NCBI GenBank assembly: GCA_036172245.1
Contig: JAYWIR010000007.1
Coordinates: 2,108,001-2,172,000 of the forward strand
DNA: 64,000 nt
Source of the DNA: Raillietiella orientalis
Taxonomy: Eukaryota
Direction: 5' to 3'
Part shown: piece by piece, positions 10,637-61,960 of the stretch
Layout: each line of letters opens with the position of its first letter
How positions within the stretch are numbered: the stretch's first letter is position 1
Position numbers and translations under genes: made by a program
Notes under the pieces: model-generated
The model's input: only the letters and a program-made list of their open reading frames with translations
The model's database searches: none
Told to the model about the DNA's origin: nothing

Positions 10637-11173
10637 ATGTGTGTGGAAAAATGTTCCACGAATGAAGTGGCCAATGCCGAAGTCACTCCCGTGATCTATG
10701 AGAATATCGCAGATTACGAAAGCGATGATAACTCGAACCAAGTACGGAGTCTAGATGAAAGAAATCTAGATGGATACATGCCTTTGCGTTCGGAGGAAAC
10801 GGATATAAATGAAGTGATCGACAACTCGAACGAAGCGGAGGTAAATGAGGCGACGAAACGAAACTATTTGTACTTAAAAAGAGTTGTGAAATAGCTTTAT
10901 AGTGAGGGCATTTTGAAATTCTCTGATTTTTTTGCCTTTTTTTTTTTTTAATGAAACGTACATTCACATGTTTTAATTGCAATTTTTGGTCATTTTCAGA
11001 CACCCCAAGATGATCAGTTAAAGCTTGATACCATGAAGATCGAGGTAATAAAAAATTGCATGGCGAATTTTACTTTACCATCTTCATCATTTCCTAAATG
11101 GGCAAATGAAGTTCCGGAGGAAATTTGGAAAACCTATTTATTAGAAAACTTGAATAACCTGAAGAATTCATAG
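10637..11173 (+). CDS. MEA1: Male-enhanced antigen 1 family protein, two exons (10637-10840, 11000-11173)
   Basis: Acidic N-terminus with GYMPL; phase-0 GT..AG intron; C-terminal block KIEVIKNCMANFTLPSSSFPKWANEVPEEIW matches the MEA1 motif pattern; AATAAA at 11175-11180. Confidence 0.75.
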
Positions 11174-11280
11174 CAATAAAATGGAAAAACATATTAACAG
11201 TTTCCTTATGGAGACAGTGGAATTATCACAGATTTCATTTCATATCACAAAATCCAAGGGATTGTCAGGAAAATAACTTC

Positions 11281-14200: not shown

Positions 14201-14562
14201 AAAAAGCTGCTGATCATTATGTCAGTCTGAGTGTCAGTAGTGTCCGTAAACAAGAGCTTAGAAATAGTCACTAATTTGTGGTCAAATCGCAAGCTTTTGG
14301 GTTGTGGTGCGAAAATGAAATCAATGAATAATAAATAACACTACTATTGCTTACGCATATACGACCTCATGTTGCAAACATTTACTGATAAGCTGAGCAA
14401 ACAAAATGAACATCCACCAAACATTCAATTTTTTGAGTGGGGGAGGTTTACCCCAAACAGTTTAAAAACTTCACGTGTTTACCTATAAATGTTACTCGCT
14501 CCTCCGGTCTTAATCGCTTTCTCTAAAGTCCAAAAGTGGAATTCAAGGGTGAAATATGACAT
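11281..14562 (-). CDS. WDPCP: WD repeat-containing planar cell polarity effector (fritz), multi-exon
   Basis: First exon 14483-14562 MSYFTLEFHFWTL; next exon YYEK..KKEYCEKKGILWSPKNK..RLKDNLIELE; CWHPDGALLMSGSQKGHIELFNLSL; LGVFYLP; KAFQLAVDI; C-terminus HVVHLGEV-stop. All are characteristic of fritz/WDPCP. Internal exon boundaries not all resolved. Confidence 0.88.
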
Positions 14563-21269: not shown

Positions 21270-21339
21270 TCACACAGCGACCGTGTCGTACGCAGTCAGG
21301 GGTCCTTTCGCGCTGGGGATGACGCAGCCGCCTTCCTTC
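21270..21339 (-). CDS. Dscam1: Dscam last coding exon (KEGGCVIPSAKGPLTAYDTVAV*)
   Basis: catag acceptor; C-terminal YDTVAV resembles the YDTMAV end of insect Dscam1. Confidence 0.88.
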
Positions 21340-24300
21340 CTATGGCGGGAGAGACAAAAAAGAAACGGGGAAGACGGAAGCAGGGCAGAAAGGGAGAGGG
21401 GGAGGTGCGGCGGGGAACAGAGGCCTCCCTCGGGAGGGGGAGAAAGAAGAGGAAAGGGGGGGGGGGGGAAGCGCGCGCCAGCGCTGGCGTCTGCTCACTT
21501 GTCCAGCAGCTTGCGCGTCTCTTCGCTTCCGTTCTCTCCCAGGATGACGTCGCCTTCAGCAGCTGGAAAGCAGAAGGGTCGTCGCACCGATGCCGCGCCC
21601 GATCCCCTCCCCCACAAGCACCTACCTCGGGCCATGTCCTGGTCGCACTCAGTTGCCGAAGACTCAAAGTGGTCCTGCACGTCGCCGTCCGACATCCGCG
21701 GCGGCGGGAGGGGAGCTTCCGGGCTGTTCATCAGGCTATCCGGGGGAGCAGGCAGGGACGTTTCCTGGGACCACTGGGGCGGCGGCGGAGGCTTTCCGTA
21801 GTACTCGGCCTCGTCGTAATACTCGTGGGTGGGGTCGTCGTACTCGGGAGAAAAGGTGGATGCCGCCACGCTTCCGTTGTACACCCGGGTGTAGCGCCCG
21901 TCCACAGGCCGGGGTTGGTGCTATCAGGAAGGGGGAGGAGAGGAAAGGGATGCGTCAGGGTCGTCAGTGCCCAGCGGGACGAGCGTGGGAGGAGCGCCCC
22001 TCCCCTCAAGCTTACGTTGGCCGGGTGCGCCGGATGGTGCAGGTGCCCTCCGTGGGAGAAGTTCGTGCATCCGGGACACTGCGAAGGGTCCATCTCTTCA
22101 CGGAATCCCAAAAGGTGGAAGGTCGCGTACGGACAGATGTCTTCGTCGGGTCCACCTGGAGTGGAGGAAGAAAAAAAAAAAGAGTGGATGAAAAGGAAGG
22201 ATCGGATGGGACTCATCGTTGGGCACGCTGGTGCCGTCGCGACCTCCCCAGGAAGAAGGGAGAGGTCCATCCTCCTAGGGAAGAAGAAAAGGGAAGGAAA
22301 AGAGCCTGCCAGAGTCCTGGCTCCTTCTCCTCTCCCTCCCAGTCACGGCACGCTTGAGCATCTTGGCTCGGCCCGCTGCACCTCCCGGACGCGCGCACGC
22401 ACGTGACGGGGCGGCAGGCGCCCAGTGGCAGAGGCGGCGACCCTGAAGTGCTAACCGGCAGAGATGCAGAGAAGAGGAAGAGCACCACCATGAGGCCGGC
22501 CGGTGTCCGCACCAGGGAGCCTGCGCGGTGACGCCCTGCTTGCCCTCCCTTTTTACCTTTGCAGTAGCACCCCTCGCCGACCGTGTCGTAGTAGCCGTGC
22601 TCGGAAGGGGGTGGCCGCCCGGACTTGCACGTGATCTTCATGCTGCCCTTGCGCGGGTCCCATGTCGCGTGACTGTATCCGACCTTACACCCTAAATCCA
22701 GCAAACAGAAGCAGCTACAGAGGTGGGATCGGCACACCGAAAAGGAGAGGGAAGGGGGGTACGCAGGAACAACTACGATGGCGGCAGCAACGACAACAAA
22801 AAAAAAAAAAGGCACAAGGAAGGGAAAGAGAAGGAAGAAGAGGGGGAAAGCGGGAAAGGAGGAGGAGGACGAAGGGAGGAAGGGAGGGGGGTTACACATG
22901 ACGTCACGACAACATCATAACAGAAAAACTGATGCTGGCAACAGATCGTGCAACCCTCCGGGGGGACCGACTGACCTCTCTTCGCCCTGTCGCAGGTCCC
23001 GTAGTTCATACCGGGAACGGGAGGAAGCTTGCGGTTCGGGGGTGGGATGTAGCCCAGTTCGTCCCGGAGATTGAGGTTCCGCTTCTCGAGGGTCGCCGCC
23101 ACAGTGGAGTGGTTGTAGACGGGATCTTCTGGACGGAACGGAGAGAGGGTTAGTCAGAGCAAGAGAGAGATAGAGAGAGGAGAAGGGGGAGGAGAAATCG
23201 CGGGGCGGGCTCCCCACTCTGGCGGCTCAACGCCTCCCAGGAGTGGCTACCTCTCAGGCGGGAAGAGGAGATGCCGTGACCCCTCCGGGTCACGGCCACG
23301 TAGACCACTGCGATGCCGACTAGGAGCACCACGGTCGTGGCGACCACCGGCACGATGATGTTGAGGTCGAACCACGAGGTCATGGTCGCCAGCCCGCCGC
23401 CGCCTCCGACGTCCCTCTCCCGCGTGGGGGCCACCGTTCCTTGGAGGAGGAGAAAAACGAAGAGGAGGAGGAGGCTCTCACCTTTCTCGCGAGCCATTCT
23501 TCCGCGCAACACGCACACCACCACCAGCGCCACCACAATGACCAGGAGGGCTGCCGCGACGGGCACCACCATGTTCAGGTTCATGTAGAACGGCAGCCTG
23601 TCGCCCTCGCCGCCGCCCACGATGCCCACCACGCCCCTCTCGCGGGCGGAGGACACGGTGCCTGCAAGCAACCAAGCGCCTTTCTGCATGAACCGTGAAC
23701 CACGGCGGGGGGAAGGGGAGGTTGGACGGGGAGGAGCGGGAAGAGAGGGGCGTAGGAAAAGGGAGGAGGGGCGCATGTCGCTGCCAACGACCCGTCCACT
23801 TACCTCCCAGGACCGTGAGAGTGGCGAACTCGAAGTTTCCCACCGCCGAGCCGGCCTTGTTGTGGGCGGTCACCCTCAGGTCGTACCAGGTGGCTGGGAG
23901 CAAATCCAGGACCACGAAGTTGCCTCCTGGTTTCACGTTGCTCGACACAATCGTCCACTCCTGGGTCATCCTGGAATAATAAAACCGGAGGGGAGGAAAG
24001 GAGGCCGGTGACGACTGGGAGGTCGGGGGGAGAGTGAAAACGCCCTCTCGTACTTGGACTTGTACTCGACGATGAAGTAGGACATGGGGCAGCCGCCGTC
24101 AGACCAGGCGCTCAGGTGCAAGGTCACGCTATTGGAGGAGGCCTCAATGAAGTGGTGTGCCTCGGGCAGAGATGGGGGGTCGCCTTTCGTTTTGGTGTTC
24201 TGCACCTCGGACTCCTCGCCGTGACCAATGCTGAAAGAGAAGGGAGGTGGGTGGGGAGGGGAGAAAAAGGCCGAGATGCGAGGATCCGCAGGAGGGAGGA

Positions 24301-27300: not shown

Positions 27301-30300
27301 GTCGAGTCGCCCCTCTTCACCGTCTGGTTCCGGAACTTGATCTCAAACTGGGGGGGCGCTGTTGCGCCGGCGGCGCGCGTCAGCGAGGAGGGGCGCGAAG
27401 GCAATGCCTCACCTTGGACGGTCACCATGACCACCGCGCTGAGCCCTGCTCCTATGCCGTTCGTCGCCTCGCACAGGTAGTAGCCCTCGTGGGACTTCTG
27501 GATGTTGTAGATCAGGAGGGTACCGTCCTCCTGTATCTTCACGCTGCGCTCGTCGGTCTTGAGCTCCCGGTAGTCGGTGGGCGTCGATCCTGTCCCGGGA
27601 AAAAAATGGGGGAGTGGGGGAGGGGAGAAAAACTCCTTCCAGAGTAAGGGCGGGGGTGCCAACTCACCGAAGGCTTTCTTCCAGCTGATGGAAGGCTTCG
27701 GGAAGCCGTCGGCCTTGCACTCGATCTTCGCTTCCTTGCCCACGCCGTAGGCAGAGTCCTTGGGCTCGATCACCCAGCGGGGAGGAACTACGAAACGACG
27801 GCACCCGGTTAGCAAAGCGAGCAGCGACTCTGGGAGCAGGCAGAGGAGAGGGCGATGGAAGATCATGCAAGAGGAAGAAGGAGAAAGCCATGCAAAAAGA
27901 GGAGAAGGAGGAAAAGCCATGTGAGGAGGTCGTGCATTTCCTCCTCCGTCAAGCAGCAGAGGCTCCAACCAGCTCCTCCTCTGCGCATTCTAGAAGAGTG
28001 GAGGCGGAAGAGGGGCCTACCACACTGCGCATGCTCTTTTTCGGAGCGCTCCGAGACGGTGAGCGGCTGCCACCAAGGGGACAGGCGGGGGGCAGCCCCT
28101 CTCCCTTTCACCTTCATCCGTCTCGGAACTCTCCTGCCGAAGGAGGCACATGCAGACAGGAGAGATGCTGGCATGCAAGCGGCGTGCATGGGAGGGAAGG
28201 GGTTGGGGGTGGGATAACTCGACGAGGAGCGCTGGATGGTGGCGGGGAAAAAAGGGGAAGGAGGAGGAAGGTTGGTGGACGACGAGATCCCTAGAAACGG
28301 CGCTCTGCAGCTTTCCCGGAGCAGCCGCCACCTTTCCCTACATCCTTGGACGGCGACTTGCACGCGCGTGCCACTTCCTTACCAACGCCGATTCGCCACT
28401 CGCAGACCCCCGCGTCGCTGTAAGCACTCCTCCATCCTCCACCCCGGGACGGCAGCAGCTTTGCGCGCTGCTCGCAGGTACGGCACGAGGACCGAGGGAG
28501 GAAGAGAGGAGTGCGTCCCCCCCCCCCCCCGACAGAGGACGGAGGATGCGTCGTTGGGACACGAAAGCGCCTCGAGATTTCTGGGAACCTGTTCTGGAGA
28601 GCTCGGGACGCAGCCCTGCCAATCGCAAGGGCAGGAGGAAGGGCGCATCCGCCTTCCGTGCTTTTTTGCTTTCGCTGGCTGGGGTTCCGGAAGGGAGGGA
28701 GTTTGTGTCCGTCCCGAATGGCAGCGGAGATCCCGGGATGCAGGAAAACTCGGCACGGCGAAGGCCGACAGGTGGCAAGAGGGTCACACGTTTTGCTTAC
28801 GGGGTTCTGCAGGGAGCCTCTGCTCGTGGCAAAGAAAAAACGGCCGAAGGTAGGGAGTCCACCCATCCTCCCTTCCCATCACCCCTGAGCTCCAAACCAA
28901 GCAGCCTGCGACAGGAAAAAGGGAACGTTCCTGCTATTAGGGGGCTTGCCGCCATTTCATCCCCGAGATCACGCACGATGCTCCGTCCCCTTCACCCTGG
29001 CGGACCTCCCAGCTCTGGGAAAGCGCCCGTCGGACATCGCACATCCTCCCTCTCTCTGCCCAGATCCCAACCCCATCCTCCTCTTCCCTGTTTGGTCTTT
29101 TCACGAAAGAACCTTCCCAACTCTATCATTCTCCTAAAAGACTCACACCACACAAAGGAAGCCGCGAGAAGTGCGGGAGGAAACCACATGGAAACTGCCC
29201 CGAATGAGAACCAACCGGGAAGGAGAAAGGGAGGAAGAAGGAAGGGGAAAGGAGAAGGAAAGAGGACAAAAGCAAGAAGAGGTGGTAGCAGTGAAGGAAA
29301 GATAGAGGATAAAGAAGAGAAGCAAGAAGGTGAAAAGAAAGGGAGGAGAGAGGGAAGAAGAGGACAACCAGGACGAGAAGGAAAAAAAAAAAGGGCGAAC
29401 AGGAAGAGTACCAGAAGAGAAGGAAACGCCTTTCTCAGAAGGGCTTGTCCGGTCCGGTATTGGGGGCAGCATTCCTCCGCGACTCCCTGCATCCGCCGCG
29501 CCAGTGGGTGAAGGGCAAAAGAAGCAGCGACACGGGTAGGGCGAGCAGGCAGCTCCCGAGGGAGTGGCGGGACGGGAGGGAGGGAGAGAGGTCCCGATAA
29601 CGCCGGCGTACCGTGGACCAGCAGCTCCGTGGAGAAGGATGTTTCCCCAGCCTCGTTCCTGGCGGAGCACGTGTACAGCCCGCTGTGCCCCAGACCGACG
29701 CTGTCCAGGACGAGCGTGCTGCTCCTCTTACTGGTCCTGCTCGTGTGGATTCCCATCTGCGTCGACACATTCTCTCCGTGGAAAGTCCAGGATATCGAAA
29801 GGGGCAGGTCGCCTTCCGGGATCAGGCAGGTGAGCTGGGCGAAACTTCCCGGGGTCCAGAGCGCTTCACCGAAGGTGAAGGGGATAATCTTCGGAGGAAC
29901 TAGGCACAACGGTTTCCGTTAGTTCCCGGGACCTCGGAGGGAGGAGACCAAAAGACGGGGAGGGGAAGAAAAAAAAAAAAAAGCAAACGGAGGGAGGGGG
30001 AGAACTCGGTATCGCGTCCGTTCGCGGCGTGCGCCGGCCACCCTGCTCTCTCCCAGTTGCTCTCTCGTCTCGCAAGGACGGGAAGGAGGGGGGAAGGAGG
30101 AAGTATCGAGGCGACCCTTCGCGAGGGGGTGACGGGGTGCAAGAGGGGGAAGGGGCGGGGCTCCTGCAGACCGTTCACTCGCAGCTCGGCCGTGTAGTTG
30201 CTCGACCCGGCGGTGTTCTCCGCGGCGCACGTGTAGTTGCCGGCGTGAAAGGAGGCCACGTCCTCGATGCTGAGTATGGTGATGCCGCTGCCGATCCTGT

Positions 30301-51300: not shown

Positions 51301-54300
51301 AGGGATGGGGGGGGGGAGGGGTAAGAGAGACTTCGGGTTGCCCGGGAGGATACATGTGTCCCTGACGGGTCACTTTGCTCCCTCGCCCTTTTTCTCTCCC
51401 CCGCCGGAAATCACCACGGCAACCGATGGCGCACGTTCCGGCGGACGCCCGGCGGCGGCACGCGAGCAAGCACAAAGCAGCGCCCTGGAGTGCGGGTGGC
51501 CGAATTCCCTTCGGTAGTGCGGGAAGGGAAAGGGGAGGAAGAAAAACGGAAGAGTGAGATGCGGCGCCGATCGCCTCTCCCCGGGAGTCCCCCCCCCCCT
51601 TTCCCCTCCTCCTCTTCCTCCTCCTTCATACGCACCTCCCGCCGCCGAGTTCCCGCCACACATCGCCGGCGGGATTCCCGCCGAGATGAGGGGGCGGCAG
51701 GGGCGCGCACGGATCGGGGGAGGGGAGAAGAGCTCGCTCGCCCCTGATCCCTCCTCCCCCTCCCATCCCCGTCTCCCGCACGTCCTGTCTCCCCTCCGAG
51801 AGGGCGGAAAGGGGGACGTTGCTCCCTGTCGCGAAGGTCGCTGCCACCAGGGAGAGAGATCGGGGAAGGGACGAGAGGCCGTTGCCGGGGGTGGGGTGGG
51901 GGAGGAGAAGGAGGCTCAAGCAAACAGCCAAGCAGCCGGGAGCGTCCACGAAAAATGGGACGCAGACAGAGACATTTCTAGGACCTCAGGGCAACCGGGA
52001 AAGCGCTTTCCCCGAAGGGGGCGCGAGCAGCCCCAGGGGCAGCGAAGGAGGCCAGGCGAAGGCGAGGGAGGGCGGAGGAGCTCTTCGGGAGGTGGCCCTG
52101 AAGGGATCCGCTGGGAAGGAGGTTCAGGGCTTTCCAAAGAGGCAGGAAAAGGGCACCAGGAAGGATACGTGTGGAAGGAATGTGGAGGGGGAAGGGTCCC
52201 GAGAAGGGGGACGGGCAGGAGAAAGGGTGCAAAGGGAGGATGAAGGGGAAGTCGTCGCCCGGCATCGCCTCCTGGTCGCCTTCCGCCTGGCGTTCGACAG
52301 GGAGCGGAGGAGCGAACGCTCCTGCGGGGTGTAGTAAAGGGAGGGAAGGGCATGGATTCGCTCCTCCAGGACCCCGAGCCACTGGAGCAGCGGCTCCGGG
52401 AGCCAGAGAAAAACAAGGGGCTGCGCCGAGGTGGGGTGAAGAGGAGGAGGAGAGGTCAGTCCCGAGAACTCCGAGAGCGAGATCAGCCTCCCATGGAGGG
52501 TCTTCGCCTCCCATGGAGGGTCCGGACACCCCCCATCCACTCAGCCCGCCTGCGAAGGGAATTCGGCCATCCGCACGAGAGGAGGCGGAAAAAAAAAAAA
52601 AAAAAAAGAAGGAAGGAAAGGGACGCGTACCTGTGACCACCAGCTTGCCCGCGGTGGCGCTGAGACGGGTCTCCCCGGTCAGCTTGTGCACTGTCCGGCA
52701 CCGGAAGGACTTGTTTCCGTCTTCCAGGGTGACGTCACGTATGTAGAGTTCTCCGGAGGGGAGCACCAGGTACTTGCTGTCTGGAAAAAAAAAAAGAGAC
52801 GTCGATAGGTGTTGACGGACGGCCTCGGAGGAGGACGGGAGGGGGGGGGGAAGGGGGAGGAGAGGGGAAGGGGGAGGGGAGGGAGAAGGAAGCAACATAC
52901 GCACGCACGCACGCACGCACCCTGTCCCGCGCGCTTCTCTTCTCGCTTCTGCACAGACAAGCGTATTCGCATGCGGGCTGTCCCCGGGTCAACGTCCCCC
53001 CCCCCCACCCCCTTTCTTTTTTCCCCTGAGTCTAAAAAGGGGAGGCCACGGAGAAAGGGTGAAAAGGCGGTTGGTTACGGCGGAACGCACGGCCATCACG
53101 AGGAGCGCGAAGGCATCTGAATTGTTTCCGCCGGCCTTCGCCCGTTCTCTGTCGGTCCCCCCCTCCCCCCTCCTCCGGTCGGGAGGATGCGCGCACTCCT
53201 CCATTTGTTCCCCGTTTCCGCCTTCTTCCTTCTCTTCCTCCCGCGCTTCCCTTCCTCCTTGACGGCTGTTGAGCCACCTCCTTGGGGAAGGAGGGAAGGG
53301 GGTGGGTGAGGAAGGACGCGGACGAGCGAGCCCGCGGCGCAACCGCCCCGCGGCCTCGCCTCCGCCCCACGCGCGCAGAGCGCCCTCTTGTGGCCACTGC
53401 AGTCTGTCCACGCGCCGCCGCTATGCCCGGGAAGCAGAGGAGGAGGAGGAGGACGGAAGGGGAGCGAAAGAGACGCGGGGAAGGAGCTACGCACGGACGG
53501 AGTTCCTTCGGGGGCGTGATTTTTCGGTTTGCCCCGTGGCCGGTTCGTCCAGCCGCCACCTCCCTTCCGGGAAGAGGATCCCTGAAGGGAAATTTTCGAG
53601 AGACCCTCTGGAGGAAGGGGGGGGGGGGCGGGCGGGATTGCCGCCGCGCTTCCTCAGGACGACGAGGAAGGGGATCGGAGGGACCGCTCCTAGTGGAACG
53701 GAGAAGTCGGGCGAAGCCTTAAAAAAAAAAAAAAAAAAAAAAAAAGACCGCACGCACGCACGCACGCACAGCATTCATGCCGCCCACGCGAAGTGAGGGG
53801 GGGGGGGGAAGCGGGGCGATGGATGCCGGAAATCTCGGATTCCGAGGTCGCCTTGTCGGATTTCCGCCGCTTCAGGGTGAGTCCCTTCCGGCGCCTCTTC
53901 CAGGTCATCGCGCTCGGGCGCGAGGGCGTCCGGAGGAAGGCGGAGGAGCCCCAGGGCGCGCGGCCGCAAGGTCGGATGTGCGGGGAGGAAGGACCCCGCT
54001 TTCCTCCGGGAGGGAGCCGGCAGCGGCGAGGGGGAGGGGGAGGGGAGACGTCGGCGGCTCTTCCCCTCTCCCGCCATGGGGAAAGGCGCTCCTCACTGGC
54101 GCGCCTCCCCGACCCCTCTCCGCTTTCCCTTTGCTGTCGCGTGCGAGTGGTGCGCACACGACTGCCCTATGCGACGCGGGTGCGGGAGCTGGGCGACGGG
54201 CGGAGCCTCCTTGCCGCGCGTCGCGTCCTTCCTACGATCTGGAGCGGTCCACCCGCCGACACGCGTCTCCCCATCCGCCACCCGTGTACTGTGCATCTCT

Positions 54301-57300
54301 TCCCTTCCCCTCCCCCGGGGACCAACCGCTTCCCCCCTTTCCGCCGCGAGCGGTGCAGCGTGGTCAAGAAGCCAACCAGTCGGTATCTCCTCCTCCTTGG
54401 GTCCGCTCCATTACCGTAGCTAAGGTCCGCATAAATGACCTTTCGGTCGCCCTGCAGCCAAGAGGTGACCCCGGTGAAATCCGACACGAAGCTGGGCACG
54501 TGACACTTGAACACGGCTGCGTTGCCCAGCAGCACGAACTCGTCGAGCACGTTCGGCTGGTAAAACTGCGCAACCACTAGAAACCAAAACGACCATCATC
54601 AGCACAGCACCAGCGCCAGCGCGCGATACTGTCGCCGCAGGGAGGGCGCGGTGCCGCACCCTCCCCCCTTCTGCCGAAGTCGCTCCCGCGGAGAGCCGCC
54701 GGCTTAGAGCCTCCTCCTCCCGCCTCGTCCGACCTTTTCCTGTTTCCGAGGAGGGGAAAGTCGCCTCTCCCCTCCTTGGTACTTCCTGAAGATGCGGAGG
54801 GGTGGGGTGTGTGGGGTAGGGTGGGGATAGGGTGGGTAGGCGACACCGGAGGCGCGCCTCGTCCGAGCTCCCTAGCCTGCCCGTCCGACCTTCCCCCCTA
54901 CCGGTCGGAGAGCGATCTCTTCGCCGGACCGCGGCCGCCGCCGGCGGGGAAGACGACGAGGCTCCCCGTGCGCGCCAACTCACGAGCGGGCTGTGCGGGG
55001 TGCCACTGCGTGCTGCCGCCGTCATTCCTCCCCCTCCCCCCACCCCATGCGCCCTTTGGTGTCAGGAAGGGAAGGCAAGGGATGGAAGAGGGAGGGAGAG
55101 ATCGGGTCGCAACGGCGCAGGCACTCTGCCCTCCTCCCCCCCCTCAACATGAGGGTGTGCATTGGGAGAGGGGGAGGGGGGTCAGTACCGAAATCGGCCC
55201 TCCGGTAAAAGGCCTCTCCGTTGGGAGTCTCCCACGCCTGGACCGCGACGGCGTCTTGAGCAAAGGACGGCAAGATGCAGCGCAGCACGCCGACGTTCCC
55301 TCTGAGCACGAATTCGTCATTGACCCGCGTCTCGTACGATTGGTACACGACTGCAAGTACACAAGAGAGGTGGACTGGGGTGAGTTACCGTGGAAGGACG
55401 CGGGGTAGTAGGTCTCCTGGTCACCATCCACCCAGTCCGTCACGCCGACAAAATCGACTACGAAACTCGGGATCAAGCATTTCAGCAGGGCGGAATTGCC
55501 GGAGAGCACGACCTCGTCAATGACCCTGGTCAGGTAATGCTGGAATACCACTGGAAAGGGAGGAAACCACCAGGTTTGAGAGAGGTGCGGACTGAGCGCA
55601 CAAGACCGGCCTGCCCATCTCTTCTGCCTCGCGAGCGAAGATACAGAACTGAGAGGGGTGGGTAGAGCCTGGCGGGAGACGAGGGGCGAGGGGGGGGGGG
55701 ACCCAGGGGCGCGGCCGCACAGACGAAGCTGAGCAGAGAGAGAGAGGAGGGAAAAGGCAGAAGAAGGTGCAGGGGGCGCCTGGGTGCGTGCGTGGCGCGC
55801 GGGCCTCTCTGCCATCCCTCCTCAACACGACCAATCTTTTACCGTGGTCCTTGGAATCTGGATAATAGAAACCGCCGCTGGAATCTTCCCACGAGTGGAG
55901 GAGCACGAAATCCGCCACGAAGCTGGGAATCTCGCATCTCAGCAAAGCGGCGTTGCCAAGAATGACGAACTCGTTGTCGGCTTCGCTCACGAAATCCTGA
56001 TCGATGACTGGGGAGACACGGGTGGTCGTTTTTTGGGCTGCAGGTGTGAACGATTCGCGCGCGACCTTTCGCCAAAGGGCTTCTGGTGAAGGGGAGGGGG
56101 GCAGGAGAAAGAAGGGAGGGGATGGAGGGCGAGAGAGGACGACAGCATCCGCACAGCAGCAGCGGCGGCAACAACAACAGCGCCACCTTCTTCTCCCTCC
56201 CTCGCCACCGTCCGCTTCCCTCCCTACCTCTCTGCAAGGAGCGAGAGCGCCGCCGCACGACGCGCGCGAGCTGTTCCGCACCACCGCTACCGACAGCCAT
56301 CGCGCCAGAGTGCCGCCGCGCCGCCACATTACCGTGCGCGAGGCCACTGGAGGTGTGGTACGTGCCGCCTGAGCTCGACTGCCACGACTGAACGCGGACG
56401 AGGTCGCTCAGGTACGAAGGGATGCTGCACTTCAGCAAGGCAGCGTTGCCGGACATCACGTACTCCGTCAGCACCTCCGCCTCGTACAACTGGGCCGACA
56501 CTGGAAAGGTGGACGGTCACGTGGTCGGTTGCAAAAGAGGAAAGGGAGCTGAGGCGGCAAGGACAGCTGCTGCTGAAGACCAGAAAGCGCCTCTCCTTCC
56601 TCGCAACACCACGTGCCAACGGCCAAGAAGCAGGTGGGGAGGGGGAAGGGAAGGGGGACCACGTGGGTGGGGAGGCAGCCGAAGAAGGGGGGGGGGGGTG
56701 AGGAAGAGGAGGAGGGAGTTTCGGAAGCCGCGAGGACGGCTCCGTCGCCAGATTTACCGTGGAGGCTCGGGCTGGGATAGAAAGCGCCGTCGGCACTGTG
56801 CCAACTTGACAGTTGGACAAAATCCGCCACGAAACTGGGAACGCTACATTTCAGGACGGCGCTATTCCCCAGGATCACGTGCTCGTTAGCGACCTCCGCC
56901 TGGTAGGACTGGGACACGACTGAAAAGACGAGACAAAACGGGAGGAGAAGGCGGAAGCGGCGGGTGGAGCAGCAGTCCTTTCAGCTTGGTTTCCCTCTCC
57001 TCGTCGTTTTCTTCTTCCTGTCCTCTTCCCCCCCTCCCTCCCCCTCCCCCGAAAGGGACCTGGGCAAACGCGCGCGGAGAGAGCTGCGCGCGCCCGCCGG
57101 ATTCCCAAAGGAGATCGACGGGCAGAGGGAGGAGCAGGGGGGAGGGGAGAAGGAAGGAGGGGAGAGACGTCGACGGAGTGAAGGGATCACCTTGCGTCTC
57201 TCCCATAGTTACCGTAGCCGTTGCTCGCGAAGACCTGTCCTTCCTCGGTTTGCCAGCTGTGCACAGTCACGTGCTCGGCCACGAAGTTGGGGACCTGACA

Positions 57301-60300
57301 CTTTACGAGAACACTATTCCCTACAATGGCGTACTCTTTTAGAGGGTCTACGTCGTACTCCTGGAAGACAACTGCAAGAGGAAGGTGCGAGAGAGTGATC
57401 CAACGGTCCGTCGGGGGCAGGCTCGCGTGGGAGAAGGGTGGGGCGGGGGGCACAGTTTCCCAGCCGAGACGCTGAGCCTCGTGAGACCTCCGCGAAAGAG
57501 ACAGAGGAAGAGAGAAACGGAAGTGGACAGGCACGAAGGACGCGGGGAACCACGTAGCAGGGTGGCAGCGGAGGAGAAACGACGACGCCGGTGGTACTGC
57601 GGGCGAAGACGCGAACGAGGCACCACCACCATACCCCTCCCCGCCCCCCCCCCCATCAAAAAAGAAAAGAAAAGAAAAAAGCGCCTTTGGAAAGAGAGAA
57701 GGACACCGTCGTGAGATGTCCTTCAGAACATTCGCGCTGCTGCATTGCTGTTGTCGTCGCCGCTGCTGCCATCCCTGCTTCTCTCGTCTTCAGGAGAGAA
57801 ACGCGGGGGTCGTCCCAGAAACGACCGGGAAAGGAAAAGCGGGGAACAAGGTCTACTGCTGCATGGAGACCCTCCCTTCCCCCAAGCTGCACGAGAGCAG
57901 GAGGGCGAGAGGCAGCTCGTCGCTGAGGGCCACGCCCATCACGTGGGGACTGGAAGGAGAGTGTGCAGGCTGCGGTGAATGGCCGTCCTTCAGAGCAAGC
58001 AGCACTGCGGGCAGAGGCAGCCGCCGCCCCTCGCTTCCCTGGATAAGGAGGTGCGTGCGGACACGCAGCCACACCACCGGGAAGGAGCCCGCGTGGGAGC
58101 AGGTCCGCACGGCAGTGAAGAGAGCGGAAGTACTTCCGGTGACGGAGCTAGAAGACAAACGTAAGGGAAAGCTGCTGCTGCTGAAGAGCGACGAGGCGAT
58201 CCCCTCCTCGTCCACAAGGCCGGTAGAAAAGGGGCGAAGGCCGCACTCCCCTAGGGTGAGACCTCCCGCGCGCCTCCCCTGAGAATCCTGGGGGGGAGGG
58301 CGTGAGAAAAAGTGGACTGCCATGCGCCTTCCGCAGTCGGAAGTCGGGGACGAAGACAAGGAAGGGGTCGTCCGTGCGGGGCAGAGGAAGCGGCCGCGAC
58401 TCGACTGGAGAAGTCGCCTGCGGCCCGGAAACGAAGAAGAGAGAAGGGGAGGGGGGAGTGGACAGAAGGAAATCCACGCGCTCTTCCGCCTCGTCTTCCT
58501 GAGTCTCCACGTTTTCCGCGGAACTCCTGAAAAGAGGAGGGGCGAAAAGAAACCCGACTGGAAGTGCCGGGCGCACCTTCCAGGCCGGAATGGGCCGCAG
58601 GAAACTACTGGAAGAAAAAAACCCGAGTGCGCGGGCGCGCACGGGCGAATTCCTGAAGGTGAAGTCTCCAACGGTGGCGCCGCTGCTCCACGTTTCTGCT
58701 TCCGGAGCCACTTGGGGTTCTTTAGCTGTTGTCTCGGCGGCGGCAGGGGGGGGGGGGGGAGCGCAAGGAAGCGCGGCCTCACCTGCTCGAACGTGGGTGT
58801 CCCTGGAGTAGATGACGCCCACGGCGTTGGACGCCAGGCAGCGGTAGGTCTGCGCATGCACCTCCTGGCGGTAGTCCTCCGCTCGGAATGGGGGAAAGAT
58901 GAGGGTTCCGTTGGGAAGAACCTGGAATCCGTTTGACCTCGGTGAGCGAGCCGGTAGAGGAAGCTCCGGGTCGGGAAAGAGGACTGCGGCCGGCGTCGTC
59001 AGCAGTCGGTGCGCCGAGCGCGTTGCCGAAGCAACAGCGTTGCGCAAGCCGCCGGCGTCCCGTTGCTCCCATCCCGCTAGAGCGTGAGCGCCGGCCCTCT
59101 CGTGCCGGCCGAGCACCTGGAAGCTCCGAGGGCTTCCAGCGGGAAGAAAGGGGAAAAGGGAGGAGCAGGAGGGAAGGAGAAGACGAGGTCGAGCGACGGT
59201 TTCTCCTGGACGGGCAGATGCGTTCCCACGGATGCGTCCCGGGGGAGACGGCGCACCAGCCGTTGCGTGCTTCCCCTCCTCCTCGGGCGAGCGGTGCCCC
59301 GGCGGCGGGATCGGGGAGCGAAAGAAAAGGAGGAAAGCCAAGCGGCAGCATCCCAGGGATCCAGGAATCTCTCCTTACGCCCGCTCCTCCGCGCGTGGGA
59401 AAGCAAAGTGCGCGCGGGCGAGAGCGATGCGGGGGGCCGGGAGACACCACCACGAAGACGGCCGTCGCCGTCTCCGGGACGCGCAGGTGGCGATGGTTCT
59501 TCCCCTTCGCCATCCCCTCTCTTCCTCATCTCCTGGCCCTCAGTTCCCTCCGATCCTCAAAGGGACGAGCAGGGCGACGGGAAAATGGCTGGGAGGGAGA
59601 GGTCTTTCGATCCCCCCCCTCCCCTCCCAACGACACAAGTCCTCACCGTCCCCTTCCTAGGGTTAGAATAGGGTGGTAGGGCAATGCGACAGAGAGGAGG
59701 GAGGGGTCGTCCCACTTGGGAAAACAGTTCCCTCCTCCTCCCCCCTGCTTCGAGGAGCGCGTCTCCATGGCGACCACTTATGGTGAGAAGATTCGAGGGT
59801 TTCTTTGTGGAAACCACGGGCTTGTAAAACAGAGGGAAGAGGAGGGTGGGAGGAAGAAACAACGAAGTGATAGACAGAAGCGGTGCAAGGAGCCCCCCAC
59901 CAGGTGAGTGAACGGGCGCGAGGCACACGGGATGGTCGCCTCTGACGGCTGCAAGCGGGAGAAACCCTCCCGAATCCCTTGAAGGTAACAACCGGGTACC
60001 CCACCGACCCCGGCACTTCGGAAAATGCCCTCCTCCCCCCCGCTTCCTTCCAGAGTCACCACGGAAACGACCTCTCGGGAACAAGAGGTCGGCTTGGTTG
60101 ATGTCCGTTCCCTGTGGATCTTCCCGGACGGTCCTCCCCCTCCCCTCCCTGATGCCTTTGGCACCCTGGAGCTCGAAAAGAAGGGAGGGAGGGGGGGGGG
60201 GAAGGGGGAAGCAGGCAAGCGAAGTGCTGGTTCCCGCAGTCGGCTCCGAGGAATAGGTCGCAGGTGCTCCTCCCCTCCCCTCAGCCCGACCCTCGCCCTC

Positions 60301-61960
60301 TCGCAGCATTTGGCAGAGCTTGTTCAGGCGTGCCCGTCGTTCCCGCGACGACCATCCAGGGATTCCGGACGACGGCGGGGTTGGATGAGGTGGAGGTCTC
60401 CGTTCCCCCGACCCCCTTCTGGGGAAGAAAGGAAGGCGGGGGAGAGTGCCCCTTCTGCTGGCGGCAGCGACAACCTCCTGATGGCTGAGGGAGCGGGCGG
60501 GGCGGAAGGGGTCGGTGAAGGAAGGAAACGCAAGGGTCGCAGACGCAACGCAAGGTGCCGCTCCTCGCTCCCGCCCGCCGCTCCGCCCCTCCTCCTCGCT
60601 CCGAAGGCGCCCCGTGATGGCGGATGACTTCGCAGCTGCCCTAGCCAGGTGCCAGCGAGTGAGCGTCCGCCCGCGGCTGCTAGGAAACGCAGCGAGAGCG
60701 CTGCCGCGCGCTCCGCGTGGTGCCTGGGCAAGCAGCGCGGATACTCCGGCGGCGATCGCCGTGGCAACCGCCCCGGGACCGAGGCGGAGAAGGGAAAGCA
60801 AAAAAAAAAAAAAGAGCGAAGCGGCCCTCGCCTTCTTTCCCTCTCTTTCCTCCCTCCCTCCCCTCCGAGCGCAGGGACCCAGCCCCGACAGTACCGGGAA
60901 GGATGGAAAGAAACAGGCAGTGAAAAGGAAAGGGGGAAAGGAGCTGCCATCTCCCTCGCGAGCAAGAGGGAGCCTCCACTCACCCACCACCTCTCCTGGA
61001 GCCTCCCGGGAAGGAACGACTAAAAAGGCTGGAGTGGGATGGGAGGGCTGGCGGATGAGGGGAAAGGGTGAAACGAAAATAGCAGTGGGGAACCCGAACG
61101 TTTTCCTATCCCACCCTTTCCGTTCGCTCCAGAAATAGGCGAGCTCTTCCTGATGCGCCTTCTCCGCCTTCGCTTGGATCGCCGGGATCCTCGAGACTTC
61201 GTCGTTGCCATGGACGCGGATTGAGCAAGCGGGTCTCGGAGCGGTCGCCGTCCCCCGAAGGAAGCGCGGAAAAGACCTCCAGGAAAATGGAAAAAAAAAA
61301 AAAAAAAACAGGGGGAAGAGGGGAAAGGAAGGGAGGTCATACAGCGCGGGCTGAGCCATCGACTCGCGCACCCGAGCGAATGAGGCGACAAAAAAAAAAA
61401 AAAAAAAAAGTCCTCGGGCGATCCTGCCCGTCGCTGGCCGGCCGGAAGGAAAGCGCGCGCGAGCGCGAGCGCCTGTGGAGGAGCGGAGCCGTCTTCCCCC
61501 CTTCTCCGCCCCGGTCGAGCGAGGGTGCACGCAAGCGGAACCGGGGGAAATCGCTCGCCGGTCCGCACGCACTGAAAGAGCCACGGCGGCTTCCCCCGAG
61601 CGGCGACGAGCACGCCGCCAAGCCGAGCGGAAATCCGCGCATGGAGAGTTAGGGAAGGGGGAGCCGCGCTGCGCGAGGGGCCGCCGCGAGGTCGGCAGGA
61701 CCTTGCCCTCAACCCCCTCCCTCGCGGAGGGAGGGCGGAGAGCGCGGGGCGCCATCGATCCCTCACTCCCAGCAGTACCTGGCGCAGCCCGGGCACGTCT
61801 CCCACGGCGGTTCCATCCGCGGCGACCACCCAGACGATCTGTGGCTCTGGGTTTCCTCTGGCGGAACAGTCGATGACGGCGCCGGTGGAGTTGGAGAAGT
61901 CCTTCTTGTTAGGAGGCTCGCTCAGGAACAGGGGCCCGTACGAGTCGTCATCAGCAAGGG
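21270..61960 (-). CDS. Dscam1: Hypervariable Down syndrome cell adhesion molecule (Dscam1/Dscam-hv), 5'-incomplete gene span
   Basis: Ordered GT-AG exons with compatible phases encoding Ig1-Ig9, FN1-4, Ig10, FN5-6, TM and a cytoplasmic tail; tandem alternative exons at Ig2, Ig3, Ig7 and TM. Confidence 0.98.
21499..21562 (-). CDS. Dscam1: Dscam cytoplasmic exon (AEGDVILGENGSEETRKLLDK)
   Basis: tttccag acceptor, gtgagc donor, phase-compatible; SEExRKL motif. Confidence 0.75.
21626..21920 (-). CDS. Dscam1: Dscam cytoplasmic exon (YTRV..SPEYDDP..SPEAPLPPPR..TECD)
   Basis: Conserved PEYDDP and SPExPxPPPR motifs; GT-AG bounded. Confidence 0.85.
22016..22155 (-). CDS. Dscam1: Dscam cytoplasmic exon (DEDICPYATFHLLGFREEMDP)
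   Basis: Highly conserved ICPYATFHLLGFREE motif; GT-AG bounded. Confidence 0.92.
22557..22691 (-). CDS. Dscam1: Dscam cytoplasmic exon (SHATWDPRK..)
   Basis: HxTWDPR motif; 135 nt, symmetric phase 1-1. Confidence 0.75.
22976..23128 (-). CDS. Dscam1: Dscam juxtamembrane cytoplasmic exon (RDELGYIPPPNRKLPPVPG..CDR)
   Basis: Conserved RDELGY and PPNRKLPPVPG motifs. Confidence 0.92.
23251..23439 (-). CDS. Dscam1: Dscam alternative transmembrane exon TM2
   Basis: GTVAP..SWFDLNIIVPVVATTVVLLVGIAVVYVAVTRR; phase 1-1. Confidence 0.9.
23482..23661 (-). CDS. Dscam1: Dscam alternative transmembrane exon TM1
   Basis: GTVSS..LPFYMNLNMVVPVAAALLVIVVALVVVCVLRGR; phase 1-1. Confidence 0.9.
23804..23970 (-). 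CDS. Dscam1: Dscam FN6 C-terminal exon
   Basis: EWTIVSSNVKPGGNFVVLDLLPATWYDLRVTAHNKAG..EFATLT. Confidence 0.93.
24054..24230 (-). CDS. Dscam1: Dscam FN5/FN6 exon
   Basis: IGHGEES..FIEASSNSVTLHLSAWSDGGCPMSYFIVEYK. Confidence 0.93.
24386..24620 (-). CDS. Dscam1: Dscam FN5 exon
   Basis: PPYPPQI..PIHGFVLKYKPE..LWCGTRYQV..AYN. Confidence 0.93.
24730..24993 (-). CDS. Dscam1: Dscam Ig10 exon
   Basis: VPAKIASFD..LPCQAVG..DAGEYRCEAENLLGQDSVTHRL. Confidence 0.93.
25074..25227 (-). CDS. Dscam1: Dscam FN4 C-terminal exon
   Basis: YEFWVTASSSVGEG. Confidence 0.92.
25301..25440 (-). CDS. Dscam1: Dscam FN4 N-terminal exon
   Basis: VPDSPAEIKALVLSADSILVSWRPPEHPNGVITHYKVY. Confidence 0.92.
25581..25736 (-). 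CDS. Dscam1: Dscam FN3 C-terminal exon
   Basis: LQGLKKFTNYSIEVLAYTGSGDG..CTTEQD. Confidence 0.92.
25827..26068 (-). CDS. Dscam1: Dscam FN2/FN3 exon
   Basis: YAIVLQAFNKVGPGPLS..TAEGIP..SCTVLTS..NGEIRGYKIFY. Confidence 0.92.
26165..26384 (-). CDS. Dscam1: Dscam FN2 N-terminal exon
   Basis: WQPPAREDWNGDIQGYYVGYK..FETVEF. Confidence 0.92.
26456..26755 (-). CDS. Dscam1: Dscam FN1 exon
   Basis: EVPYGIKVLNKNGRSVQLSWNAPYDGNS..YHLRIVATNEIGASDPSD. Confidence 0.94.
27013..27161 (-). CDS. Dscam1: Dscam Ig9 C-terminal exon
   Basis: TIREEI..REDSAVYSCVATNAFGSDNTSINLIVQ. Confidence 0.93.
27211..27358 (-). CDS. Dscam1: Dscam Ig9 N-terminal exon
   Basis: APPQFEIKFRNQTVKRGDSTVLVCDAKGEAPIGILWN. Confidence 0.93.
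27413..27589 (-). CDS. Dscam1: Dscam Ig8 C-terminal exon
   Basis: DGTLLIYNIQKSHEGYYLCEATNGIGAGLSAV. Confidence 0.93.
27668..27787 (-). CDS. Dscam1: Dscam Ig8 N-terminal exon
   Basis: VPPRWVIEPKD..IECKADGFPKPSISWKKA. Confidence 0.93.
29612..29899 (-). CDS. Dscam1: Dscam Ig7 variable exon 9.8
   Basis: VPPKIIPFTF..LTCLIPEGDLPLSISW..SGLYTCSARNEAG..LLVH; 288 nt, phase 1-1. Confidence 0.93.
30172..30459 (-). CDS. Dscam1: Dscam Ig7 variable exon 9.7
   Basis: VPPKILPFSF..LQCVTVTGDPPLKLWW..AGNYTCAAEN..LRVN; 288 nt. Confidence 0.93.
30790..31077 (-). CDS. Dscam1: Dscam Ig7 variable exon 9.6
   Basis: VPPEILPFTF..LQCVVALGDLPLQMSW..SGNYTCTAAN..LVVN; 288 nt. Confidence 0.93.
31626..31910 (-). CDS. Dscam1: Dscam Ig7 variable exon 9.5
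   Basis: DVPEIVPFSF..VQCVVSKGDLPVQITW..AGNYTCLARN..LIIN; 285 nt. Confidence 0.93.
32188..32475 (-). CDS. Dscam1: Dscam Ig7 variable exon 9.4
   Basis: DLPQITPFSF..VQCIVPKGDLPLVVSW..TGNYTCVARN..LTVN; 288 nt. Confidence 0.93.
32979..33263 (-). CDS. Dscam1: Dscam Ig7 variable exon 9.3
   Basis: VPPHIAPFSF..VTCHVPKGDVPIEIRW..AGVYTCTATN..LTVT; 285 nt; weaker AAG acceptor. Confidence 0.9.
33627..33908 (-). CDS. Dscam1: Dscam Ig7 variable exon 9.2
   Basis: VPPAILPF..MNCFVTKGDEPLEIRW..SGVYTCTAIN..VTVN; 282 nt. Confidence 0.93.
34083..34367 (-). CDS. Dscam1: Dscam Ig7 variable exon 9.1
   Basis: VAPSINAFKF..LNCIVSKGDLPLSISW..SGTYTCTASN..LVVN; 285 nt. Confidence 0.93.
35244..35405 (-). CDS. Dscam1: Dscam Ig6 C-terminal exon
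   Basis: GRVLPVNKKQKVFPNGTLFIENVQR..YTCVVKNAQGYS..VEVM. Confidence 0.94.
35724..35986 (-). CDS. Dscam1: Dscam Ig5/Ig6 exon
   Basis: GDVMSQLNIT..DGGSYKCLATSKVG..GLPYVRPM..CPAAGYPI. Confidence 0.93.
36121..36265 (-). CDS. Dscam1: Dscam Ig5 N-terminal exon
   Basis: LQCSATGNPVPEITWQLDG. Confidence 0.92.
36365..36619 (-). CDS. Dscam1: Dscam Ig4 exon
   Basis: APLTATVEPQTQVVEFGR..KGMYQCFVEND..ELKLGGR. Confidence 0.94.
36691..36872 (-). CDS. Dscam1: Dscam Ig3 constant C-terminal exon
   Basis: WYR..SGILIIKEARVEDSGKYICVANNSVGGESVETVLTVT; accepts phase-2 exon-6 variants. Confidence 0.94.
39839..39959 (-). CDS. Dscam1: Dscam Ig3 variable exon 6.12
   Basis: EPAGRVSPLVSGESFLFREFCKGGAAQLVCHAHGYPAPAF; 121 nt, tag/gtgagt, phase 1-2. 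Confidence 0.85.
40105..40225 (-). CDS. Dscam1: Dscam Ig3 variable exon 6.11
   Basis: ESKIETAPAITGSDLSRSRAEKSKDVSLVCDIQANPRPSTR; 121 nt. Confidence 0.85.
42177..42306 (-). CDS. Dscam1: Dscam Ig3 variable exon 6.10
   Basis: VPVGDVPPRRSGDRFEGGRIVHTGHGGASTMLCDVTGFPPPASR; 130 nt. Confidence 0.88.
42360..42489 (-). CDS. Dscam1: Dscam Ig3 variable exon 6.9
   Basis: DPGSSVAPRSPGKRYHGGEIVAAGERSVACLSCAVSGSPVPTFR; 130 nt. Confidence 0.88.
42895..43024 (-). CDS. Dscam1: Dscam Ig3 variable exon 6.8
   Basis: GPVGTVAPTYVGLRAEGGILIKATVREAANLICGVTGLPAPTFR; 130 nt. Confidence 0.88.
44238..44364 (-). CDS. Dscam1: Dscam Ig3 variable exon 6.7
   Basis: APSSSVVPRSKDVEIANVRKTAGVTRPASLVCQVQGFPVPEQR; 127 nt. Confidence 0.88.
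45435..45558 (-). CDS. Dscam1: Dscam Ig3 variable exon 6.6
   Basis: EPMSTVPPRLIDGVIIEGRLARADLSLALVCRAQGYPVPETR; 124 nt. Confidence 0.92.
45593..45716 (-). CDS. Dscam1: Dscam Ig3 variable exon 6.5
   Basis: VPISLLPPSLTEDEKYERTAAVRGLHAALPCAARGFPAPSHR; 124 nt. Confidence 0.88.
49026..49152 (-). CDS. Dscam1: Dscam Ig3 variable exon 6.4
   Basis: VPRTDVPPALKDTSSIGTKLTSRSAHAAVMTCDIQAFPAPTAR; 127 nt. Confidence 0.9.
50196..50316 (-). CDS. Dscam1: Dscam Ig3 variable exon 6.3
   Basis: EPLSDVAPKVPEAVMRYIDVTSGELALILCEIQAHPAPYFR; 121 nt. Confidence 0.92.
50625..50748 (-). CDS. Dscam1: Dscam Ig3 variable exon 6.2
   Basis: EPLSTVPPRFLDGVVSEGRYARAGPSLALLCRAQGHPAPQSR; 124 nt. Confidence 0.92.
50783..50906 (-). 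CDS. Dscam1: Dscam Ig3 variable exon 6.1
   Basis: VPLAPAPPRLAENERFARMVAARGLHATLPCAAPAFPAPGRR; 124 nt. Confidence 0.87.
51161..51186 (-). promoter_or_regulatory. Exon-6 cluster docking site (splicing regulatory RNA element)
   Basis: Transcript strand reads ATCAGCCTGAATGTTGGGACGCGGC, between exon 5 and the first exon-6 variant; the core GCCTGAATGTTGGGA matches my recollection of the insect Dscam1 docking core; complementary elements occur within the cluster. Confidence 0.85.
51490..52576. repeat. Long-range inverted repeat (51490-51513 / 52553-52576), LCR-like RNA stem
   Basis: gtgcgggtggccgaattcccttcg versus the reverse complement of cgaagggaattcggccatccgcac: 23 of 24 positions identical. 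Confidence 0.85.
52631..52780 (-). CDS. Dscam1: Dscam Ig2 constant C-terminal exon (exon 5)
   Basis: SKYLVLPSGELYIRDVTLEDG..FRCRTVHKLTGETRLSATAGKLVVT; 150 nt. Confidence 0.96.
54415..54576 (-). CDS. Dscam1: Dscam Ig2 variable exon 4.7
   Basis: VVAQFYQPNVLDEFVLLGNAAVFKCHVPSFVSDFTGVTSW; 162 nt, phase 1-1. Confidence 0.94.
55189..55350 (-). CDS. Dscam1: Dscam Ig2 variable exon 4.6
   Basis: VVYQSYETRVNDEFVLRGNVGVLRCILPSFAQDAVAVQAW; 162 nt. Confidence 0.94.
55389..55550 (-). CDS. Dscam1: Dscam Ig2 variable exon 4.5
   Basis: VVFQHYLTRVIDEVVLSGNSALLKCLIPSFVVDFVGVTDW; 162 nt. Confidence 0.94.
55843..56007 (-). CDS. Dscam1: Dscam Ig2 variable exon 4.4
   Basis: VIDQDFVSEADNEFVILGNAALLRCEIPSFVADFVLLHSW; 165 nt. 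Confidence 0.94.
56333..56500 (-). CDS. Dscam1: Dscam Ig2 variable exon 4.3
   Basis: VSAQLYEAEVLTEYVMSGNAALLKCSIPSYLSDLVRVQSW; 168 nt. Confidence 0.94.
56758..56919 (-). CDS. Dscam1: Dscam Ig2 variable exon 4.2
   Basis: VVSQSYQAEVANEHVILGNSAVLKCSVPSFVADFVQLSSW; 162 nt. Confidence 0.94.
57213..57371 (-). CDS. Dscam1: Dscam Ig2 variable exon 4.1
   Basis: VVFQEYDVDPLKEYAIVGNSVLVKCQVPNFVAEHVTVHSW; 159 nt. Confidence 0.94.
58783..58921 (-). CDS. Dscam1: Dscam Ig1 C-terminal exon
   Basis: VLPNGTLIFPPFRAEDYRQEVHAQTYRCLASNAVGVIYSRDTHVRA. Confidence 0.96.
61779..61960 (-). CDS. Dscam1: Dscam Ig1 N-terminal exon
   Basis: GPLFLSEPPNKKDFSNSTGAVIDCSARGNPEPQIVW..DGTAVGDVPGLRQ. Confidence 0.96.

Follow-up and report, generated by a model that had tools for sequence, protein, structure and literature searches.

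The Dscam1 gene of Drosophila melanogaster is quoted in a recent survey as combining 12 x 48 x 33 x 2 alternative exons into 38,016 isoforms (PMC12431208). This survey, which appeared in 2025 and covers 178 species, reports 7-30 variants of exon 4, 12-102 of exon 6 and 9-53 of exon 9, with ectodomain numbers that extend from 2,106 in Pediculus humanus (9/18/13) up to 74,646 (PMC12431208). Among the 91 species rows of its Figure 1B the next smallest are Eulimnadia texana with 7/20/16 (2,240) and Clunio marinus with 10/15/20; copepods fall at 15-20/19-35/13-18, and the accompanying S1 Data give 12 Ig3 exons for Belgica antarctica (PMC12431208). At least 13/20/13 variants are described for Parhyale, where cDNA clones reveal that the arrays are mutually exclusive (PMC5111886), and a 2026 paper describes a docking site of exon 6 whose conservation extends to almost all insects and crustaceans (PMC12962786). 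The Dscams of myriapods and chelicerates, as described, comprise many paralogues whose arrays are either confined to Ig7 or consist of 5' cassettes with alternative promoters (PMC3364881, PMC4835542, PMC5775551).

The number of isoforms that a nervous system needs and the driver of repertoire expansion are both disputed questions. The authors of the survey propose that approximately 2,000 isoforms are needed for neuronal self/non-self discrimination, with the excess reflecting fitness and immunity, and they report this level as being sufficient in flies and as being met by all 178 species (PMC12431208).

The Dscam1-type gene of Raillietiella orientalis described here is complete within the window, which is the whole 64-kb stretch of DNA that was analysed and is free of N. 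It occupies 41 kb of the minus strand, from approximately 62078 down to 21270, and consists of 57 exons, of which 28 are constant and 29 are variable and arranged in four tandem arrays. We read it, with a probability of roughly 85%, as the orthologue of the pancrustacean hypervariable Dscam1, a single-pass surface receptor predicted to include one exon per array and so to exist in 672 ectodomain and 1,344 full-length forms. The original prediction had recognized a Dscam1 architecture at this locus, and that recognition is borne out by colinearity with Periplaneta Dscam1, by matches to Ig, FN3 and DSCAM families, by matches to structures in the PDB and by a rooted tree. By analogy with Drosophila, the variable Ig2, Ig3 and Ig7 segments would set isoform-specific homophilic binding, which would serve neuronal self-recognition and perhaps immunity, while the two transmembrane (TM) forms would set the subcellular destination of the protein.

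The gene shares with Drosophila melanogaster Dscam1 its domain order, the four variable positions (half of Ig2, half of Ig3, Ig7 and TM) and the presence of two TM alternatives. It differs in its 7/12/8/2 exons, which give 28 times fewer isoforms, in having some variants merely 34-42 nt apart, and in that docking or selector pairing does not rise above controls in de novo scans. Daphnia Dscam has a full-length identity of 56-58% to the Raillietiella protein, but it has 8/24-27/16-17 variants, with Ig3 and Ig7 arrays two to three times as large, and it groups with insects, away from the Raillietiella gene (support 96). Reduced arrays within a canonical layout are also found in Pediculus humanus and Eulimnadia texana, the latter likewise having seven Ig2 exons. 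Set against the smallest published values, however, all three ectodomain arrays of Raillietiella are at or below the minimum at once, with eight Ig7 exons falling below the minimum of nine, and the lowest published ectodomain number is about three times as high as 672. The suggestion made in the original prediction that this would be a much smaller repertoire therefore holds against the values of at least 2,106 given for the 178 surveyed species (PMC12431208). It is notable that this is the smallest Dscam1 repertoire that we have found described, lying below the range of that survey. A literature search on Dscam1 in barnacles, ostracods and springtails contained no Dscam1 paper among the matches listed.

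The orientation of the gene follows from the distribution of protein families between the strands. Seventeen of the 128 open reading frames (ORFs) of at least 140 aa on both strands between 21 and 62 kb have Pfam matches; the minus strand carries every one of them, and the families matched are all Ig, fn3 or DSCAM (I-set, Ig_3, fn3 and FN3_DSCAM-DSCAML_C, the last scoring 60 bits against a cut-off of 39). Seven of these ORFs hold the eight Ig7 exons. No transposon or nested gene was seen in this Pfam scan of ORFs of at least 140 aa. The plus strand from 20.2 to 43.3 kb contains 110 ORFs with 70 aa or more, none of which matches an Ig or FN3 family in Pfam, and the paralogous ORFs present there match each other in several frames simultaneously, as the antisense of a coding repeat would. 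At the same places the minus strand is clean Ig and FN3 sequence, which places the gene on that strand, from about 62 kb down to 21 kb. A plus-strand reading was rejected on the same count of 0/110, with just two of the 110 ORFs giving weak, unrelated matches below cut-off. The arrays lie within the span given in the original prediction, and to it can be added the strand, which had been left unstated. The GC content over the gene is 60-68% in 2-kb windows.

The constant part of the gene was modelled on Periplaneta Dscam1, which in a tblastn search against the window aligns in colinear fashion over reference residues 13-1943. Exon junctions were refined by testing donor and acceptor pairs against this reference, while the last exons were read by eye. 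The resulting model is 1,954 aa in length, and its residues 41-1954 align to residues 20-1986 of the 1,986-aa Periplaneta protein with 54.4% identity; all 27 internal constant junctions have AG/GT sites. The order of domains is that of known Dscam1, with nine Ig, four FN3, one Ig and two FN3 domains followed by the TM segment and a cytoplasmic tail.

The first coding exon (61779..62078, as with all exons on the minus strand) encodes the signal peptide and the first half of Ig1, is aligned by tblastn to Periplaneta residues 13-80 and has its donor CAG/GT at 61779. Its first in-frame ATG is at 62078, although whether this is the true start, or whether a small intron lies there, is uncertain. A possible short intron (GTAAGG ... 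CTAG) can be seen at 61980-62078 on the minus strand, between this ATG and the Ig1 sequence. The second half of Ig1 is encoded at 58783..58921, with 77% identity to reference residues 78-124, and the second half of Ig2 ("exon 5") at 52631..52780, with 76% identity to residues 182-231, both exons having AG/GT borders. The second half of Ig3 ("exon 7") is at 36691..36872, as located by tblastn and Pfam. Four constant exons identified by tblastn and Pfam encode Ig4-Ig6 (35244..36619), at 36619-36365, 36265-36121, 35986-35724 and 35405-35244.

Fourteen constant exons between 23804 and 27787 encode Ig8, Ig9, FN3 1-4, Ig10 and FN3 5-6, with Pfam matches to I-set, fn3 and FN3_DSCAM-DSCAML_C. The first five are at 27787-27668, 27589-27413, 27358-27211, 27161-27013 and 26755-26456, the next five at 26384-26165, 26068-25827, 25736-25581, 25440-25301 and 25227-25074, and the final four at 24993-24730, 24620-24386, 24230-24054 and 23970-23804. 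The cytoplasmic tail is divided between six exons (21270..23128), at 23128-22976, 22691-22557, 22155-22016, 21920-21626, 21562-21499 and 21339-21270, with the first two junctions assigned least securely, and it ends at a TGA stop codon at 21272-21270. The Dscam_C family (PF12355) was not matched at E<=1e-4 in the tail ORFs scanned, but the tail can still be aligned to that of Periplaneta, and the C-terminus (...AYDTVAV, from the exon at 21270-21339) conserves a motif present as ...PYDTVAV in Periplaneta and ...AYDTVNV in Daphnia.

The seven predicted Ig2 exons each encode the first half of Ig2, are 159-168 nt in length and are all 0 mod 3. They share AG/GT borders and a common phase, beginning with two codon-completing bases and ending in ..G/GTA. 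In the direction of transcription they are found at 57213..57371 (variant 1, 159 nt), 56758..56919 (variant 2, 162 nt), 56333..56500 (variant 3, 168 nt), 55843..56007 (variant 4, 165 nt), 55389..55550 (variant 5, 162 nt), 55189..55350 (variant 6, 162 nt) and 54415..54576 (variant 7, 162 nt), with variant 5 only 38 nt upstream of variant 6. When variant 2 is compared with the PDB, 12 of 12 matches are to Drosophila Dscam structures, at Ig2 residues ~107-154.

The Ig3 array contains 12 exons of 121-130 nt, again as predicted, which encode the first half of Ig3 and are all 1 mod 3. Variants 1 (50783..50906, 124 nt, donor GTCCGT) and 2 (50625..50748, 124 nt) are separated by 34 nt and are followed by variants 3 (50196..50316, 121 nt) and 4 (49026..49152, 127 nt). 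A second pair with a spacer of 34 nt is formed by variants 5 (45593..45716, 124 nt, donor GTCCGT) and 6 (45435..45558, 124 nt), after which come variants 7 (44238..44364, 127 nt) and 8 (42895..43024, 130 nt, donor GTCTCT). Variant 9 (42360..42489, 130 nt) is 53 nt upstream of variant 10 (42177..42306, 130 nt). Variant 11 (40105..40225, 121 nt) is the most divergent, with 18-26% aa identity to other Ig3 variants, and variant 12 (39839..39959, 121 nt) is the exception to the ..AG/GT ending of these exons, its border being ..CT/GTGAGT. Two further tblastn candidates, at 49663 and 38203, were rejected as having neither splice sites nor a profile match. The two pairs with 34-nt spacers are copies of one block, 50625-50906 and 45435-45716 on the minus strand, that consists of a variant, the spacer and a second variant. 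Variants 1 and 5 are 55% and variants 2 and 6 are 68% identical at the amino acid level, the spacer retains 28 of 34 positions by our own count on the alignment, and similarity fades outside the block; this two-exon duplication is the one recent event among the arrays.

Each of the eight Ig7 exons that had been predicted encodes a whole Ig domain in 282-288 nt and lies within an ORF that matches Ig families in Pfam. They are located at 34083..34367 (variant 1, 285 nt), 33627..33908 (variant 2, 282 nt), 32979..33263 (variant 3, 285 nt, with the weak acceptor context ..ggcaag), 32188..32475 (variant 4, 288 nt), 31626..31910 (variant 5, 285 nt), 30790..31077 (variant 6, 288 nt), 30172..30459 (variant 7, 288 nt, donor GTCTGC) and 29612..29899 (variant 8, 288 nt). 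The best PDB match of variant 6 is to residues 619-709 of Dscam 1.30.30, which is Ig7, with an E value of 2.9e-28. The two TM exons of the original prediction are likewise present and share a phase, with variant a at 23482..23661 (180 nt) and variant b at 23251..23439 (189 nt), 42 nt apart. Variant a is of the class of the hymenopteran and Daphnia isoforms compared and variant b of the class of the Periplaneta and Bacillus isoforms compared; of 124 reference isoforms, 87 lie closer to TMa and 37 to TMb. Judged by sequence, TMa and TMb thus each appear to match one of the two insect TM classes, and this one-to-one match implies that the TM pair is older than the divergence between this lineage and the insects.

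Profile searches of the kind suggested with the original prediction confirm its exon counts. The array profiles were built from their own members, which therefore match by construction, so that it is further matches that constitute the test. Among 1,764 six-frame pieces the Ig2 protein HMM gives seven matches at E<=1e-25 before the next at E=0.42, the Ig3 HMM gives 12 at E<=3e-14 before a constant Ig exon at 8e-6, and the Ig7 HMM gives eight at E<=1e-40 before a constant Ig exon at 2.6e-7; no further Ig2, Ig3 or Ig7 variant was found. With nhmmer DNA profiles no extra copies or pseudo-exons were detected in the window, the counts again being 7, 12, 8 and 2. The AG/GT borders and the phase common to each cluster hold for 29 of 29 variable exons, and the arithmetic that gave 672 ectodomains and 1,344 isoforms is right: all 1,344 combinations read from M to stop, are distinct from one another and are 1,947-1,958 aa in length. 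The description of the repertoire as highly divergent also agrees with mean pairwise aa identities of 40%, 30% and 45% among the Ig2, Ig3 and Ig7 variants, respectively. The closest pair is 68% identical, and on these sequence comparisons the 29 variants are old.

Homology with the described arrays makes it most likely that one exon per array is used in each mRNA, and each transcript would then take one exon from each of the four arrays (7, 12, 8, 2) to generate 672 ectodomains and 1,344 proteins. Part of this exclusion could be built into the gene. The adjacent exons of Ig3 v1/v2, Ig3 v5/v6, Ig2 v5/v6 and TMa/b are separated on the minus strand by spacers at 50749-50782 (34 nt), 45559-45592 (34 nt), 55351-55388 (38 nt) and 23440-23481 (42 nt), and in all four pairs the donor of the upstream exon falls within the pyrimidine tract of the downstream acceptor. 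No constant intron of the gene is shorter than 49 nt, and the next shortest has 54 nt, so the members of these pairs are probably not spliceable to each other. Because every Ig3 exon has a length of 1 mod 3, the reading frame is shifted when two of them are included together, and this property and the short spacers would help to enforce mutual exclusion. The frame alone would permit the inclusion of two exons of the Ig2, Ig7 or TM array, whose lengths are 0 mod 3; for the other exons we assume an insect-like mechanism of competing RNA structures or a repressor. Several variable exons have weak sites, with donors GTCCGT (twice), GTCTCT and GTCTGC and acceptors ..caag (twice), and usage may be low for some of them.

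Docking sites were sought by de novo pairing scans, to which the GC-rich, low-complexity introns give a high background. The best candidates paired with 4/9 Ig3 spacers against 3-5 in reversed-sequence controls, with 3/5 Ig2 spacers against 2, and with 3/7 Ig7 spacers against 3, while an RNAduplex scan for docking sites picked GC-rich low-complexity windows only. The k-mers common to introns of the Ig3 cluster (36873-52630) are likewise only low-complexity words of the CCCTCCCC and GGAGGGGG type, the pyrimidine word CCCTCCCC being present in 9 of 13 introns and the complementary purine word GGAGGGGG in 8 of 13. These words can pair with each other anywhere, which raises the background of pairing.

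The position of the gene within the Dscam family was assessed through searches with single exons and through a tree. The FN3-1 exon (26460-26756, minus strand) matched 607 proteins, the best 120 of which are all insect Dscam with 67-71% identity, headed by Periplaneta americana Dscam1 isoform X19; against protein representatives the same exon brings up giant multi-FN3 proteins, which are ranked by summed repeats. The Ig10 exon gave eight matches, with the five named ones all from Daphnia (53-56%), and the Ig5/6 exon gave five, including Spodoptera (59%) and Apis (52%). No relative closer than 71% is among the matches listed for these three exon searches. A maximum likelihood tree was built under LG+G4 from 1,651 of 2,257 columns, using 12 sequences selected from ~130 available with near-duplicate isoforms left out, and was rooted on the non-hypervariable Dscam paralogue of Apis. 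The Raillietiella gene falls inside the hypervariable Dscam clade in this tree, on a long branch (0.40) at the base of the clade, and its sister group is formed by insects plus Daphnia (support 96). Since the branch is long and the 12 sequences include no copepod, decapod, myriapod or chelicerate, the basal placement may owe something to long-branch attraction. The small repertoire may be either an ancestral state or a secondary reduction. Identity to the Dscam1 proteins of insects and Daphnia is 57-61%, compared with 64-69% among the latter, and falls to 38-39% for the Apis paralogue.

Both the long basal branch of 0.40 and an identity that is below the range of 64-69% would fit a history in which another Dscam-family gene, and not the Dscam1 orthologue, independently gained similar arrays in the manner of the myriapod and chelicerate Dscams, which belong to the same Ig-superfamily Dscam family and, as described, are also diversified by exon duplication. 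We consider such an independent gain highly improbable, because the four arrays occupy the four positions of Dscam1 and encode the same halves of domains, each TM exon has its counterpart in one of the two insect TM classes, the C-terminal motif and blocks of the tail are shared with Periplaneta and Daphnia, and the non-hypervariable paralogue of Apis is only 38-39% identical. The Raillietiella gene also differs from the myriapod and chelicerate Dscams in having Ig2, Ig3 and Ig7 arrays plus a TM pair; those Dscams are not known to combine internal Ig2, Ig3 and Ig7 arrays in one gene. If the gene is taken as Dscam1, its arrays might still not all be mutually exclusive; variants that are dead or hardly ever used, or Ig7 exons joined in series within one mRNA, would then make the working repertoire depart from 7 x 12 x 8 x 2. 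An Ig7 exon, as a whole Ig domain with symmetric phase, would be suited to such joining, the Ig7, Ig2 and TM exons are all 0 mod 3, some splice sites are weak and the scans gave no docking or selector signal. We nevertheless regard non-exclusive use as decidedly unlikely: open frames and framework residues (Cys, Trp, and the GN..L.C and Y.C motifs) are preserved in all 29 variable exons, which suggests selection on each exon, tandem Ig2 or Ig3 half-domains would not fold as an Ig domain, and the frame is shifted whenever a second Ig3 exon is included. Mutual exclusion of the arrays is, moreover, what is described for every species tested, such as Parhyale (PMC5111886).

A somewhat less remote concern, though still an unlikely one, is that this is a real Dscam1 for which 672 is an undercount, either because a second hypervariable locus exists elsewhere or because the assembler collapsed near-identical copies of exons. 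The recent duplication of two Ig3 exons reveals that the array is still duplicating, and 672 is an outlier that needs care, since all 178 surveyed species are given at least 2,106 ectodomains (PMC12431208). Collapse is opposed by the age of the 29 variants, whose mean identities of 30-45% and closest pair of 68% place them so far apart that they are not the type of repeat that assemblers collapse. The window also has no N, and within it the gene is complete, with arrays flanked by constant exons and no pseudo-exon remnants between. More tentatively, we propose a fuller version of the Dscam1 reading that we hold as possible but would not yet favour, in which this gene would be the sole hypervariable Dscam of its genome and self-recognition would operate on 672 ectodomains, roughly a third of the ~2,000 put forward as sufficient in flies, with exclusion enforced partly by unspliceable spacers and without an exon-6 docking site, in a lineage outside insects plus branchiopods.

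Should these 672 ectodomains be the whole repertoire of the animal, it would be an exception to the floor of ~2,000, and it would become testable whether the shortfall is compensated by a small nervous system, by a lower number of isoforms expressed in each cell or by other genes. The compact 41-kb gene is also well suited to the study of mutual exclusion, as some neighbouring exons are closer than the shortest intron and a canonical docking site is not evident.

Around the gene, none of the 85 ORFs of at least 110 aa in the flanks (1-9.5 kb, 16.5-21.3 kb and beyond 62 kb) matches a Pfam family, and neither tRNA nor Rfam families were detected in the whole 64-kb window. Long ORFs that are empty are common on both strands because the GC-rich, strand-skewed composition makes stop codons rare. 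One of 783 aa within intron 1 (59560-61908, minus strand) was rejected as a gene, its translation being of low complexity, rich in R/G/P/S and without a Pfam match. An AT-rich block at 10001-16000, with 37-39% GC, lies between stretches of 58-65% GC.
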